NCBI GenBank assembly: GCA_964474085.1 | Contig: CAYYRJ010000011.1 | Location: forward strand, 11,347-75,346 | From: an uncultured Planctomycetales bacterium | GTDB lineage: Bacteria > Omnitrophota > Gorgyraeia > Zapsychrales > JANLHA01 | Direction of reading: 5' to 3' | Length of the DNA stretch: 64,000 bases | Shown: piece after piece, positions 32,871 to 44,632 of the stretch | Numbering within the stretch: the first letter of the stretch is position 1 | How the letters are laid out: each line of letters starts with the position of its first letter | Position numbers and translations under genes: made by a program | The notes under the pieces: generated by a model | What the model saw: only the letters and a program-made list of their open reading frames with translations | What the model was told of the DNA's origin: nothing | The model's database searches: none

Positions 32871-32917
32871 TGGTTGCGGGGACAGGATTTGAACCTGTGA
32901 CCTTCAGGTTATGAGCC
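32871..32917 (-). repeat. 47-nt partial copy of the tRNA-Met 3' half (anticodon loop to CCA), the left att direct repeat of the tRNA-integrated island
   Basis: tggttgcggggacaggatttgaacctgtgaccttcaggttatgagcc is identical to 44556-44602 inside the intact tRNA. Confidence 0.85.
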
Positions 32918-33036
32918 GCCGAAAAGAAATAATTTCAACCCGATTTTCCCGTTTTTTACCGTTGGAGTTAGGCAATACTGTAAGCCTTCCTCCTTTCTGG
33001 GTTTTGACTGAATTAATATTACCTACGCACAAATAA

Positions 33037-34998
33037 TTACTGTCGAATTCTAGACGCATTTTGACAACTTGCCTTATAATTACCCCATAACTTTTTCAAA
33101 GGCCAAAAAATAAAATATAATATTGGTAGCGCAGCTAAAACATCACGAATTATTTGCTGATAATCCCCACAATTAAATATTTTACAATAACCCCACGCTA
33201 CCAACAAGGAACCCATCCCACAAATAGGCAATGTCTTAAGCAGTCCCCGCAGCAAAGCACCTAAAGCATCCCTTTTAATTTTAGCCGCCTTAAAATTGTT
33301 TAATTCTTTTTCTCGTTCTACTGATTTAATTCGTTCTTGATTAGTTTCTTCTTCCGCTCGCTTGATTCTTTCTTTAGCATCAGACAACTGCTCAGAAACC
33401 TCTATAGTGCTTGCTTGATACAATCTATTAATCCTCAAGGCCAAATTGCTGTCGTGCGCTTTTCCTTCTAATCTCGCCTTTGCAATCTCTTTAACGAGTT
33501 TCTTAACTTCCTCCGAAGGTAAGTCAGCGGCCCTTTCATTAATTTTATCCAACAATTGTAAATCCTGCAAAATATAAGTACTGCTTGAAGGCAAACATTC
33601 ATTGAGTAATAGCTTGGATAATAATGGGGCAAAATTGGTAGCATCAGAAATTGGTTCCGAATTATTTAGGGCAAGAATCTCTATCAATACCGAAACAGAT
33701 AGCAGTTTGGGCAACTCATGGTGCGGAGTTTGTTCTAACACAGATGCTTGCAAAGACCTATCCAAACTTAGTATCCAAGCTTTCTCATTTTTCCCCCTTA
33801 AGTAATCAACAGTATGAATTAAACAAGTATCGTGATTTAACGCCGCCTGCCCTTTTTTCCCTTTCCATTTCGCACGAAATTTTAAGGCAAATTTTTGTAT
33901 TTGATTTTTTAAATGTTCATCCTGCTCAGATTTTATTTGAGTATCTAGAAATTCTTTATCGTCTTCCAAAACTATATTAAGCCCGTCGGGCAATGTCCGA
34001 GGTATATTTAAAAGAGAATCGAAGAATCTGTTATAATCTTCTTCATTTTTACAACCTCTATCTCGTGCAGTCGCAATAAAATCGTCTCTGACATCCTGAA
34101 TCACTTCATCATCAAAAGCTTTAATTACATGAATCGCATCCCCTCGTTTTGCGTTCAAAGCTCGGGCGTATTCCTCTGTCGTGCAATGCAGATAAATTAA
34201 TTTTGAGTTAAGAAACTTGAATGCACCTTCTAAGGCCTTGATTGATTGCCACAATCTACTACTTTCCAGCGATAAAGCGAACAAAACATTTGTGTCAAAA
34301 ATGAATGTTGAATTACTTAATTCTTCAATTGTAATAGGGTCTATCCCAATGTCAGCAGCCACTAAACGTGCTGAAAACATCGCCTGACTCATCAAAAATA
34401 AATATTGTTGGTCTCGAATATTATCACTTGAGAGGAAACTTACGAAACCAGCAACTAACGCCTGCTTATGCTGCTCTAGTTTATTATTCTTTATGGAATT
34501 GGAAAGCAACTGTTCAATCGTCTGTGAGGAAGCCGCAATTCTTCTATTACCTTTACTCGATATTTTAATCCATTCATCACAATAAAATCCCAGGAAATCC
34601 GCAGAAGACTCTCTGAACCACATTTTAAGTATCTTTTTCGGGAGGGTGGCTGGGAAATGGCGCTCTAAAACTTCCCGCAACAGGCCTCTTTCTGTATTGA
34701 TTTCCCTACTAATGTCTTTGCGACTATTATTCTCTAACTGCCATGTCTTCCCATTCGTTCTAACTTTGCCAGATTGTTGTAAAAATTGAAGCCCGTCAAT
34801 AACCAATTCCGATGAGACACTTTTGTTCCCAATCATTTTTGCCGACTCAGACACCAACTGTTGCACCTCAACGGGCGATTCTATGGAATACATAACTTTT
34901 GCTATCAGCTCAGCAAAAGCTAAAGTTTTAAGTGGTTTTGCAGAAGTGCCATATTTCAAATTTACAGTTACAAGCTGTCTCGTGTTAAACTGCATCAT
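33037..34998 (-). CDS. Large hypothetical protein (653 aa) with an internal PIN-like motif and C-terminal transmembrane helices
   Basis: Internal FIFDTNVLFALSLESS resembles a PIN-domain first acidic motif. C-terminal hydrophobic segments (LPICGMGSLLVAWGY...ALPILYFIFWPL). Confidence 0.35.
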   Translation of the reverse strand: MMQFNTRQLVTVNLKYGTSAKPLKTLAFAELIAKVMYSIESPVEVQQLVSESAKMIGNKSVSSELVIDGLQFLQQSGKVRTNGKTWQLENNSRKDISREINTERGLLREVLERHFPATLPKKILKMWFRESSADFLGFYCDEWIKISSKGNRRIAASSQTIEQLLSNSIKNNKLEQHKQALVAGFVSFLSSDNIRDQQYLFLMSQAMFSARLVAADIGIDPITIEELSNSTFIFDTNVLFALSLESSRLWQSIKALEGAFKFLNSKLIYLHCTTEEYARALNAKRGDAIHVIKAFDDEVIQDVRDDFIATARDRGCKNEEDYNRFFDSLLNIPRTLPDGLNIVLEDDKEFLDTQIKSEQDEHLKNQIQKFALKFRAKWKGKKGQAALNHDTCLIHTVDYLRGKNEKAWILSLDRSLQASVLEQTPHHELPKLLSVSVLIEILALNNSEPISDATNFAPLLSKLLLNECLPSSSTYILQDLQLLDKINERAADLPSEEVKKLVKEIAKARLEGKAHDSNLALRINRLYQASTIEVSEQLSDAKERIKRAEEETNQERIKSVEREKELNNFKAAKIKRDALGALLRGLLKTLPICGMGSLLVAWGYCKIFNCGDYQQIIRDVLAALPILYFIFWPLKKLWGNYKASCQNASRIRQ

Positions 34999-35080
34999 TT
35001 AATCCTTCAGAATTATAATTATACGTTACCGATAAATGGAAGTTTCAAACCATTTCTCTGCTTTCACCGTCGGGAATTGA

Positions 35081-35911
35081 TTAATTATTGGTTCCCATCG
35101 TCGCTTCTTGATGAGCGATTTTTGGAACCATCTCATTCATCGTATAATGAACAAACCAATCTCCTAACTCTGTCAACACATACTCATCCTTATCATCAAA
35201 TGCGGATTTTACTTGTCCTGTCCTTCTGGGGCGTCTTCGTTTAGGCAGGAAATTACCCGAGGCATCTGTTTCCCTGTGTTGTCTGATAACGTGCCCGACA
35301 CTCAAATCGTGAATCAATTTCTTAAAGAGGTCTGCCTCGGCTGAATTTTCCCTGACTCTATTCCCATGAATTTCTTGCCACATTTCATATCTCGTTAATC
35401 CTGGGTCTTTATAAATTAACTGAACTATTTTAAAATGGCCTTCGCTGTATTGGTCAATCCACTCAATAAACATCCGTAATATATCGTCGCCACAAATTTT
35501 CTGGGCACCCGCAGCATTACAAAGAAGGTTGCGGATTAAAATCCTTTTTTCTTCGCTCTCAGCGGCACTCCAATCCCTGAAGCATTTCTTTATCAACTTA
35601 AGATATTCAGGACTTTGAATTCGTTCTTGAACTCGTTCATCGTTTCTATCAAGTCGAAGCATTACCTCCATCAAAGTTTTTCCAATTTCTTTAATTTCAT
35701 CTTCTTGAAGTTTAAGCCAAGAAGCAAATATCTTATTAAATCTTTCTTGCTCTGCCTCAGACCATGCCCCTGCACCTCCACCAATGGCCCCACCAGCATA
35801 AGGAATTAAGCCTCCTAAAAAAGCGAGCGCAAATCTGGCAACTTTAGAACCCGCACCCGAATTAAGGGCGTCTTCCATTTCTTTTTTAACATCATCATTC
35901 GGTTGAGACAT
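35081..35911 (-). CDS. Hypothetical protein (276 aa) with a Gly/Ala-rich N-terminal segment
   Basis: ORF. GGLIPYAGGAIGGGAGAWS near the N-terminus. No catalytic motifs recognised. Confidence 0.35.
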   Translation of the reverse strand: MSQPNDDVKKEMEDALNSGAGSKVARFALAFLGGLIPYAGGAIGGGAGAWSEAEQERFNKIFASWLKLQEDEIKEIGKTLMEVMLRLDRNDERVQERIQSPEYLKLIKKCFRDWSAAESEEKRILIRNLLCNAAGAQKICGDDILRMFIEWIDQYSEGHFKIVQLIYKDPGLTRYEMWQEIHGNRVRENSAEADLFKKLIHDLSVGHVIRQHRETDASGNFLPKRRRPRRTGQVKSAFDDKDEYVLTELGDWFVHYTMNEMVPKIAHQEATMGTNN

Positions 35912-43534: not shown

Positions 43535-43544
43535 CCAATAATTT

Positions 43545-44444
43545 TTATATGTTTAATGGGTGCTTTTCCACCGCTCCTCTTAACTGCTGCTCATCGCATC
43601 CCAAATAAAATCTCGCCGTGGTGGAAATATCAGCATGACCAACCAGAAGTTGAATGTCTCGCAGATTAACACCATTCCTAAGCATCAATGTGCAGAAGGT
43701 ATGCCGCAATATTTGCGGGCAAACTTTCTTTGGAATCTTGGCCTTCTTGCGGAGTTCTCGGAACATGTCATAAAGCCCCTGGGTGGTAAGTGCTGAACCT
43801 CGCCTATTCGTCGAGACAAAGAGATTATCTACCGTCCGCTCGGGGCGAACCTTCAAATAGTCCTTCACGAATCCTATAAGCGTTTCGTTTAAAGGGATGA
43901 GCCGTTCTTTGTTCTTGGCTGAAACTTTGATATATCCTCGCTCAAGATTTAAGTCCCGCATTTTGAGATTAAGAAGCTCTTTCTTCCGTATCCCCGTTAA
44001 TAAAAACATGGCAATAATCGCCACGTCTCTATACCACTGGGATTTATAAAACCGCTTCATATCCATGCAGGCCCGTAATAATTTCCTGGCCTCGTCTTCA
44101 TCCAGAAACTCGGGAAGCCTGCGGGCTATTTTGGGCTTTTCAATGCGGTCAAATGGATTATTGGGGAGGTGATTGCGCTTAACCAGGAAGGTACAAAAAG
44201 CCCTCAAAGCCCGTATCAGATTTAGAATCGTTCTGGGTGAGTTGCCTGACTGTCGCTGGTGAATAAGAAAATCTCGCAGGGTTTCAACGCTGAGGGCGTC
44301 TAAAGTAGCGGGTAATACTCGACGACGAAGGTATTTATAGAAGCAGCGAATACTGCCGTCATACCACAGGATAGTAGTAGGTTCTAAGCACCTTTCTAAG
44401 ATTGAGTAGCTGGTGAATTCTTTGTAGAGCTCGGGGAGTTTCAT
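43545..44444 (-). CDS. int: Tyrosine recombinase/integrase (XerC/D-like size) of the tRNA-Met island
   Basis: C-terminal catalytic region LRHTFCTLMLRNGVNLRDIQLLVGHADISTTARFYL (H-R-H/Y context). Adjacent to the tRNA target. Confidence 0.85.
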   Translation of the reverse strand: MKLPELYKEFTSYSILERCLEPTTILWYDGSIRCFYKYLRRRVLPATLDALSVETLRDFLIHQRQSGNSPRTILNLIRALRAFCTFLVKRNHLPNNPFDRIEKPKIARRLPEFLDEDEARKLLRACMDMKRFYKSQWYRDVAIIAMFLLTGIRKKELLNLKMRDLNLERGYIKVSAKNKERLIPLNETLIGFVKDYLKVRPERTVDNLFVSTNRRGSALTTQGLYDMFRELRKKAKIPKKVCPQILRHTFCTLMLRNGVNLRDIQLLVGHADISTTARFYLGCDEQQLRGAVEKHPLNI

Positions 44445-44555
44445 TTGCCGTTGGGCTTACAGGCAACATGCTGTCTTCCAACGGTTAGTGGGAAAGGGGT
44501 GGAGCAGGTTGGTAGCTCGTCGAGGGCTACTTGTTCCTACTCCACCTTTTCGTAT

Positions 44556-44632
44556 TGGTTGCGGGGACAGGATTTGAACCTGTGACCTTCAGGTTATGAG
44601 CCTGACGAGCTACCGGGCTGCTCCACCCCGCC
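44556..44632 (-). tRNA. tRNA-Met (anticodon CAT), 77 nt with encoded CCA. It has initiator-like features.
   Basis: Reverse complement GGCGGGGTGGAGCAGCCCGGTAGCTCGTCAGGCTCATAACCTGAAGGTCACAGGTTCAAATCCTGTCCCCGCAACCA folds as a cloverleaf. It has a CAT anticodon, A11:U24 and an unpaired 1:72 (G1/A72). It closely resembles the E. coli tRNA-fMet sequence quoted from memory for this comparison. Confidence 0.85.

Follow-up and report, generated by a model that had tools for sequence, protein, structure and literature searches.

An uncultured member of the Omnitrophota has a probable integrative island, with defence-type cargo, in its initiator-type tRNA-Met gene

What is the DNA that lies between a tRNA-Met gene and an exact copy of that gene's own 3' part, about 11.7 kb away, in the genome of an uncultured Omnitrophota bacterium? 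The question is raised by a 64,000-nt stretch of contig CAYYRJ010000011.1 (the whole stretch is hereafter called the window), for which a reading of the sequence alone had proposed a tRNA-targeted defence island. Members of the Omnitrophota are uncultured, very small bacteria, and to our knowledge their mobile elements and phage defences are almost undescribed. Our results indicated that positions 32870-44602 very probably constitute an 11,685-bp integrative island in the initiator-type tRNA-Met gene. As a tRNA-targeted integrative island with defence-type cargo, it is an element of a well-known kind in a little-studied phylum.

Target tRNA, attachment repeats and integrase clade

The ends of the island are marked by the following features:

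44556-44632, minus strand: tRNA-Met(CAT) gene, initiator type, the integration target (ARAGORN; Rfam tRNA, 61.5 bits)
44555-44602: attL identity block, covering the 3' part of the restored tRNA; exact repeat of 32870-32917
32870-32917: attR, displaced copy of tRNA positions 31-77 with 1 nt more; direct repeat, identical over all 48 nt to 44555-44602
32828-32872, minus strand: hairpin and T-run in the native flank, outside the island (inverted repeat with 20-nt arms, 85% complementary)
43545-44444, minus strand: 299-aa XerD-like tyrosine integrase (PF00589, 1.7e-34, and PF02899)

According to ARAGORN, with which Rfam agrees, the tRNA-Met(CAT) gene is the one tRNA in the entire window. Because it is ~90% identical to three tandem tRNA-Met genes beside mltA in Escherichia coli, which are the initiator genes metZWV, and has a mismatched 1:72 pair, the target is assigned to the initiator type. 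The direct repeat, originally given as 47 nt, does reproduce the 3' part of the tRNA exactly, but its length is 48 nt, covering tRNA positions 31-77 and one base beyond the 3' end. The two copies, 11,685 bp apart, bracket the island of ~11.7 kb; by self-BLAST of the window (E 1.5e-17) they are its strongest repeat and the only long one that is exact. The hairpin at 32828-32872 is read, from its sequence, as the original terminator of the tRNA, cut off from its gene by the island. An independent contig, L170 (related loci and contigs are given L numbers), crosses the attR junction and agrees with the window over the last 7 nt of L170.

We propose that the element, as a circle, brought with it a copy of tRNA positions 31-77, and that the 299-aa integrase would have recombined this copy with the chromosomal gene by a crossover no further 5' than position 31, within or close to the anticodon loop. 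Such recombination would have regenerated an unchanged tRNA at attL and left the original 3' fragment as attR beside the terminator. Written in the sense of the tRNA, the attB junction would consist of tRNA positions 1-77 followed by AATAAAAACCCAGTTTCCGACGAGGATTCTG, and the attP junction of GGGAAAATCGGGTTGAAATTATTTCTTTTCGGC, GGCTCATAACCTGAAGGTCACAGGTTCAAATCCTGTCCCCGCAACCAA and TACGAAAAGGTGGAGTAGGAACAAG in succession.

The integrase gene shares the strand of the tRNA at a distance of 111 nt, and its product belongs to a clade of ~76 proteins with 55-91% identity, beyond which the next relatives drop to 37%. The few organism names in the clade are mostly Omnitrophota or Omnitrophica, with one "bacterium", and most members are unnamed metagenomic proteins; a comparison of the integrase profile with IMG/VR gave no close relative (best 32% identity). 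R153, K177/K179, R247, H270 and Y280 are invariant among 29 clade members. A tRNA gene or fragment was found just upstream, on the same strand, in all 11 distinct clade loci with upstream sequence:

tRNA-Met/CAT targets: the window, L084, L085, L086, L087 and L254
tRNA-Arg targets: L082, L162, L163 and L164
truncated target: L257, a tRNA 5' half ending in the anticodon loop

The closest relatives with a readable upstream tRNA (L082, L162, L163 and L164, at 73-75% identity; this comparison leaves out the nearer proteins P0001, 99%, and P0002, 91%) target tRNA-Arg, and the clade therefore switches targets. Direct repeats of 42-48 nt, starting at tRNA position 32-33, bound the islands in four sister loci, with the following spacing:

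L086: 6,084 bp
L162: 6,948 bp
L164: 8,483 bp
L085: 9,169 bp

Cargo differs from island to island across the clade, and defence genes are often among it: PADLOC matched bSEFIR (1e-101), PDC-S37 (E = 0) and PDC-S45 (2e-25) in the sister islands, which also hold an epimerase, RibD_C, a methyltransferase and DUF481 as non-defence cargo, with a D5-type primase-helicase in L085. L254 comes from a different species and occupies the same eno-linked initiator tRNA site; its integrase has 66% identity, its cargo is another one, and a long att repeat is absent. Because the clade loci share the tRNA adjacency and the repeat geometry while their cargo varies, the 48-nt repeat is taken as an integration scar and not as a stray pseudogene. 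Thus, a tRNA-Met-targeted island with its tyrosine integrase beside the tRNA, as originally proposed, is upheld by the att repeats and by the relatives alike, and this integrase clade may shuttle small, interchangeable cargo sets.

Further traces of recombination were observed in the sister loci. An additional repeat copy lies ~1 kb beyond attR in L085 (11084-11125), a second integrase fragment past attR in L162 (17038-17499), and an extra integrase fragment or att copy just past attR in L254 (15584-15880); they point to repeated (serial) integration at the same tRNA sites. In L257, the tRNA-Met 5' half before the integrase (~9850-9890) stops in the anticodon loop (CTCATAC) and is uncompleted by island sequence, and this target gene appears to have been left broken.

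One additional feature lies between the tRNA and the integrase:

44496-44521, plus strand: inverted copy of tRNA positions 4-29 (23/26 bases complementary to 44604-44629)

It is situated inside the island, separated from the tRNA 3' end by 34 nt and from the integrase start by 51 nt. Ordinary att formation cannot explain it, because integration never duplicates the 5' half of a tRNA. Comparable inverted copies occur in three of the six CAT-tRNA members, namely the window, L084 (9913-9935) and L087 (~9954-9982), and each resembles its own tRNA, initiator in the window and elongator in the other two. Their scores of 31-38 compare with shuffle maxima of 20-23 (38 versus 21 in the window), and a control in direct orientation gave nothing. 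No such copy was found in L085, L086, L254 and the four tRNA-Arg members, so that 3 of 10 clade members have one. In the predicted fold of a read-through transcript from the tRNA to the integrase, the tRNA 5' half pairs with the inverted copy (free energy -84.6 kcal/mol, z -7.3). In the window, either strand of the copy also folds into a local hairpin; as a conserved trait this hairpin was rejected, since it folds well in the window and not in L084.

Possible roles of the inverted copy are the insulation of the integrase from the tRNA promoter when the island is integrated, an accessory integrase-binding site, or a rearrangement relic. That it is a functional device tracking the type of the target tRNA seems quite unlikely to us. 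Were it one, the predicted fold suggests that it may pair with the tRNA 5' half in read-through transcripts, thereby insulating or timing the expression of integrase and cargo according to the integration state, as this pairing partner is present only in the integrated state. It may alternatively bind the integrase as an accessory site, in place of the arm sites that so short an integrase cannot read. If true, either role would represent a component of tRNA-targeting islands undescribed before.

Cargo genes and the middle of the island

Starting from the integrase, the island contains the following genes and segments:

42620-43534, minus strand: 304-aa protein with weak AbiGi-like similarity (Pfam AbiGi, 17 bits; PADLOC AbiGi, 1.2e-5)
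41358-42602, minus strand: 414-aa DUF262 (GmrSD_N) and HNH nuclease protein, type IV restriction-like (PF03235, 2e-13; PF01844, 1.1e-10; PADLOC NsnA, 1e-19)
40751-41278, minus strand: 175-aa P-loop nucleotide-kinase-like protein (PF13207 AAA_17, 9e-17; weak adenylate kinase matches; PADLOC VakA, 1.6e-5)
39239-40741, minus strand: PDC-M11A, 500 aa, with GNAT (1.3e-6), a weak EVE-like C-terminus (0.006) and an N-terminal DTN motif (PADLOC, 1.3e-133)
38860-39261, minus strand: PDC-M11B, ASCH-domain protein (PADLOC PDC-M11B, 7.8e-48; Pfam ASCH, 6e-5)
38057-38605, plus strand: 182-aa serine recombinase, catalytic domain with a short basic tail (PF00239, 6.7e-31)
37076-38056: 981-nt stretch without a convincing gene, only short low-complexity open reading frames (ORFs)
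36263-37075, minus strand: 270-aa XRE-HTH and Panacea (SocA-like) antitoxin (PF13274, 7e-18; PF01381, 5e-14)
35923-36297, minus strand: 124-aa putative toxin, HigB-2/RelE-like (family-profile match)
35081-35911, minus strand: 276-aa protein with a Gly-rich N-terminus, helical middle and C-terminal winged helix (predicted local distance difference test, pLDDT, 71)
33037-34998, minus strand: 653-aa protein, modelled with a winged helix at the N-terminus, a PIN-like domain in the centre, then a long coiled coil and, at the C-terminus, a hydrophobic helix

The cargo genes lie where the sequence-only reading had put them, including the small serine recombinase and the defence and toxin genes; domains were assigned with hidden Markov models (HMMs), among them those of PADLOC and Pfam. 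All island genes except that of the serine recombinase lie on the strand of the tRNA, and the integrase, the AbiGi-like protein, the DUF262-HNH nuclease, the P-loop kinase, PDC-M11A and PDC-M11B would form one operon. The defence scan with PADLOC found PDC-M11A (1.3e-133) and PDC-M11B (7.8e-48) with near full-length matches, in adjacent genes that overlap at 39239-39261; a search of PDB sequences with the 500-aa PDC-M11A gave nothing significant. Of the PIN-GNAT fusion proposed for PDC-M11A, the GNAT part was recovered, but no HMM sees an N-terminal PIN domain, and what had been read as one amounts to a DTN motif only. No AbiGii partner stands beside the 304-aa protein, whose neighbours are the integrase and the DUF262-HNH protein; its PDB search gave no match, and a tBLASTN search against plasmids was likewise empty.

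At the far end of the island, the Panacea antitoxin and putative toxin genes overlap by 35 nt. The 124-aa toxin family has ~500 cluster representatives, and its profile matches Vibrio cholerae HigB-2 (5ja9; E 4.7e-5) across the C-terminal 50 residues, a conserved motif. As a single sequence, the 124-aa protein gave no HMM match, and only 1 of 46 family members weakly matches Pfam RelE. Next to this Panacea/HigB-2-like pair come two uncharacterised genes with relatives in defence contexts.

The 276-aa protein has at least 2830 homologues. Among the best 120 of these, identities are 61-79% apart from one exact copy. Most are unnamed metagenomic proteins; the organism names, present in a few cases, come from several phyla, functional names are lacking throughout, and PF14337 is present in one protein. 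Its model gave MarR/PadR-like fold matches (probability ~1, E 0.04-0.5). One homologue lies directly after a type I restriction-modification (RM) operon, and another is the first cargo gene of the sister island L163.

The 653-aa protein is rare, with ~50 homologues, all unnamed, and no match in Pfam, PADLOC, NCBIfam or PHROG; searches of PDB sequences with this and the 276-aa protein gave nothing significant. Its AlphaFold2 model (pLDDT 84.5) matches the PIN proteins 8rdd (Nmd4) and 1w8i (AF1683) weakly at the centre and the winged-HTH protein 2g7u weakly at the N-terminus in Foldseek. D235-T236-N237, E276, D390 and D413 are invariant in the family, and these D-T-N, E, D and D residues fit a PIN active site; the PIN domain first suspected from sequence motifs has in its favour these conserved acidic residues and no more than weak fold matches. 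The protein has one clear hydrophobic segment (616-634), and a homologue sits between a type I RM system and a patatin and SMODS pair of the CBASS (cyclic-oligonucleotide-based anti-phage signalling system) type. A conserved partner gene was considered and rejected, as the genes next downstream in L166, L167 and L168 show no relation to one another or to the 276-aa protein. The 276-aa family, which is large, and the 653-aa family, rare and combining a winged helix with a PIN-like domain, are candidate new defence genes.

Between the operon and the distal block, the island contains a serine recombinase devoid of a helix-turn-helix (HTH) domain and ~1 kb of structured non-coding DNA. The recombinase aligns to residues 7-143 only of gamma-delta resolvase, with Ser11 aligned in an RVS motif, and nothing aligns to resolvase residues 148-183, where the HTH domain would be; the protein ends 27 residues past its GRP motif, with a basic tail in place of the HTH. 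The SGYxLRYA tail is shared with a 173-aa homologue in the sister island L164 (13030-13551; 38% identity) and with L114 (3193-3708). Such HTH-less serine recombinases with the tail GRPxGxKD...SGYxLRYA recur near tyrosine integrases in small islands (window, L164 and L114).

Three adjacent palindromes (49, 23 and 23 nt; 37411-37515) lie in the gene-free stretch, as do four AAAAAKCCC motifs, all on one strand and within 235 nt (37692-37926), which make up four of the eight matches in the window. The palindromes and motif cluster might mark an origin, a site of recombination or a region with a regulatory role. The idea that the three palindromes form a res-like site was rejected, because they are not conserved beside the recombinase homologues of L164 and L114. 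Rfam at gathering thresholds gave the tRNA only, and a relaxed scan of 37050-38900 one meaningless miRNA match. Counts in a promoter and terminator scan were close to shuffle expectation and uninformative.

Taken together, the cargo is less uniform than the term "wholly conflict-related" had implied: PDC-M11A/B, the DUF262-HNH protein and the Panacea antitoxin with its HigB-2-like toxin are well supported by HMMs, but AbiGi is sub-threshold, and the kinase, 276-aa and 653-aa proteins are given no function by HMMs. It is fair to say that conflict genes are enriched in the small, variable cargo moved by the integrase clade, and that they make up most, but not all, of the cargo of the window island.

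Host locus, rival explanations and neighbouring DNA

The enolase adjoining the tRNA has at most 77% identity to anything in the species-level genome set, and its best matches are all Candidatus Omnitrophota. The order ftsH-eno-divIC-tRNA-Met was found again in ~15 related Omnitrophota loci, in four of which divIC, and in several an ftsH match, was undetectable. Past the tRNA, these ~15 loci have nothing in common with the window except NAPRTase/PncA in L041; synteny of the region in all relatives, which had been named as the observation that would speak against an island, was therefore not borne out. In nine other Omnitrophota species, each with at least 1.7 kb of downstream sequence, a tyrosine recombinase is absent after the eno-linked tRNA-Met. 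Some Omnitrophota contigs, including L002, L015 and L035, end 70-150 nt after this tRNA, which would be expected if the site were a variable hotspot that breaks assemblies. Copies of the island were found in two other datasets, at 100% identity in contig L169 (Logan run SRR12487046) and at 99.9% identity in contigs L081 and L170 (ENA assembly ERZ4216102).

Several observations weigh against a mobile defence island. As to an unoccupied site, the nine species mentioned above lack a tyrosine recombinase after the tRNA, an attB pattern (native flank, 48-mer and tRNA 5' part) was without a match in JGI metagenomes, and a conspecific empty site was not found. The circular excision junction that had been suggested was not seen in contigs L081, L169 and L170, which have integrated junctions only. 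Because neither this junction nor an empty-site match was found, we infer current mobility rather than show it. No excisionase-like gene was found among the island proteins by Pfam or among the small ORFs in 37076-38056. In the integrase, Gln244 stands at the expected first catalytic His of the R-K-H-R-H-Y set and is invariant across the clade. As for the cargo, the Pfam score of AbiGi (17 bits) is under the 22.4-bit cut-off, PDC-M11 is no more than a candidate (predicted) system of PADLOC, and the kinase, 276-aa and 653-aa proteins are without a demonstrated role. Finally, base composition was compared among segments:

island: G+C 0.381
right-hand core flank: G+C 0.448
next island, 21028-32766: G+C 0.400
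NAD segment: G+C 0.383
far left flank: G+C 0.401

The island is more AT-rich than the right-hand flank, as had been noted, but G+C fails to separate it from the DNA at its left (0.383-0.401).

The absence of an excisionase, a circular junction and an empty site, as well as the Gln in place of a catalytic His, would fit a fixed relic that integrated once, lost excision and was kept for its cargo alone, and decayed sites do occur in relatives (L254 without a long repeat, L257 with a truncated tRNA). Nevertheless, the 48-nt repeats remain exact, the integrase ORF is intact, and the remaining catalytic residues are invariant across the clade; Gln244, being invariant too, is a family trait and not decay, and we consider a relic possible, though doubtful. 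A composite island, in which the middle segment at ~37.1-38.9 kb is a separate insertion or a seam between accreted cargo modules and not a working part, deserves to be kept in mind without being favoured: G+C differs by block (0.418 in the recombinase segment, 0.351 in the PDC-M11/AbiGi block and 0.379 in the block of the toxin-antitoxin pair and the 276-aa and 653-aa proteins), the recombinase gene is on the strand opposite to every other island gene, and the palindromes and 9-mer cluster are restricted to this segment. Yet the segment is not bordered by direct or inverted repeats, a small recombinase with the same tail in L164, an island of the same integrase clade, suggests a recurrent association, and the palindromes are not conserved near homologous recombinases.

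The nature of the cargo allows another interpretation, that addiction modules and miscellaneous accessory genes predominate over an anti-phage arsenal. Its components are known from sequence alone, with PDC-M11 a candidate, AbiGi sub-threshold and four genes of no known function, and related islands hold the non-defence cargo listed above. We regard this as unlikely in view of the strong PDC-M11 matches, a DUF262 and HNH architecture like that of type IV restriction enzymes, the recurrence of defence genes in sister islands, and the type I RM and CBASS-type genes adjoining homologues of the 653-aa and 276-aa proteins; an anti-phage function of the island may thus be inferred. Much less probable is a decayed prophage or phage satellite. 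Integration into a tRNA by a tyrosine integrase is typical of prophages and satellites, and L085 has its D5-type primase-helicase, but no capsid, terminase, replication or packaging genes were found among the island proteins with Pfam and PHROG, the PHROG matches being regulators and recombinases only, and the clade lacks a close relative in IMG/VR. Nor did any island protein have a relaxase, coupling protein or type IV secretion domain. Almost no weight can be given to the view that the 48-mer is an unrelated tRNA pseudogene or local duplication and the DNA between its copies native, which has nothing in its favour beyond the bare possibility raised at the outset. The scattered pseudogene family then envisaged did not materialise, the 48-mer being present in two copies only in the window; the integrase lies exactly at the expected place, four sister islands at other tRNAs repeat the same geometry, and relatives are without this DNA. 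The integrative island thus remains our preferred reading.

To the left of attR lies a second element:

21028-32770: second integrative element, 11.7 kb, with a 368-aa integrase, a PrimPol-AAA_25 replicase, a Ser/Thr kinase and type I RM genes hsdS/hsdM/hsdR

Its 368-aa integrase is 26% identical to the 299-aa integrase, and its ends are a 19-24-nt repeat (21109-21132 and 32747-32770) coding for the integrase's own C-terminal tail GTN(L/M)AH. It is not inserted in the tRNA, because its right end lies ~100 bp beyond the native terminator of the tRNA. By its sequence, it is a second, independent element with its own integrase and a non-tRNA att site. At 9792-9892, a third, exact copy of the 19-mer occurs with a remnant of the second integrase's tail. 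The segment between this copy and the second element (9893-21027) holds a NAD-salvage cluster (NadR-like, PnuC, PncA, NAPRTase and NrtR) with SPFH and HicB genes. The NAD-salvage genes may form an older element that has no integrase, or they may be native, and the latter is preferred because NAPRTase and PncA keep their order near the same tRNA, ~3 kb from it, in the complete Omnitrophota genome L041. Consequently, of the "35 kb of stacked acquired DNA" once assigned to the tRNA gene, the adjacent 11.7-kb island is real, but it has its own integrase and a non-tRNA site, and the NAD genes are perhaps native; this DNA lies downstream of the tRNA 3' end, not upstream as had been written.

Repeats were also observed elsewhere in the window. 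A non-coding block recurs at 9545-9775, 19523-19657 and 32688-32734 with 74-100% identity, upstream of a MarR-like gene, the NrtR gene and hsdR, respectively. At 52970-54199, two adjacent paralogous ORFs share a 150-nt stretch with 74% identity (53056-53206 and 53554-53704), and relatives of these ORFs lie near the eno locus in L001 and L004.

Comparison with known systems

The integrase clade with its exact tRNA att sites provides a handle for mining new Omnitrophota defence genes between such sites, and its relation to described systems can be seen at the level of both the island and the cargo modules. Both components of PDC-M11 in the PADLOC definition are present and adjacent here, with the P-loop kinase gene 9 nt upstream in the same operon. 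Like GmrSD/BrxU type IV enzymes, the DUF262-HNH protein has an N-terminal DUF262 (GmrSD_N); its C-terminal nuclease is instead a classical HNH (PF01844), with no DUF1524 match, and because of this HNH in place of DUF1524 we consider the protein a relative, not a member, of GmrSD/BrxU. Panacea has been reported to pair with many toxin types, and a Panacea antitoxin gene overlaps a small partner gene (PMC8832971). Such an overlap with a small gene is also found here; unlike in PanA modules, the antitoxin has an added XRE HTH, and the toxin is distantly HigB-2/RelE-like, by family profile.

P4-like satellites and integrative elements at E. coli tRNA hotspots combine a conserved integrase and att site with fast-exchanged defence cargo. 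The window island resembles the E. coli hotspot elements in its conserved integrase and att site and in the stacking of several systems within a few kb; unlike P4-like satellites, it is without a satellite or replication module, and most of its cargo is candidate or uncharacterised.

In Islander tRNA/tmRNA islands, the integrase splits the tRNA gene and the island restores it, so that one end is marked by the regenerated gene and the other by the displaced 3' fragment (PMC4383910). The window island likewise has an intact tRNA at one end, the 3' fragment repeat at the other, and an integrase gene adjoining the tRNA. The identity block starts here at the anticodon stem-loop, which is reportedly among the known integration sublocations of tRNA islands. 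It differs from Islander islands in its short XerD-like integrase of 299 aa without an arm-binding domain, from a clade named only in Omnitrophota, as well as in the initiator tRNA target with close relatives at tRNA-Arg, the unrecognisable excisionase and the inverted 5'-half copy in three clade members. In an element that otherwise shows textbook behaviour, three things go beyond the ordinary: the Omnitrophota-specific integrase clade, the two cargo families that are uncharacterised, and the inverted copy of the tRNA 5' half with its match to the target.

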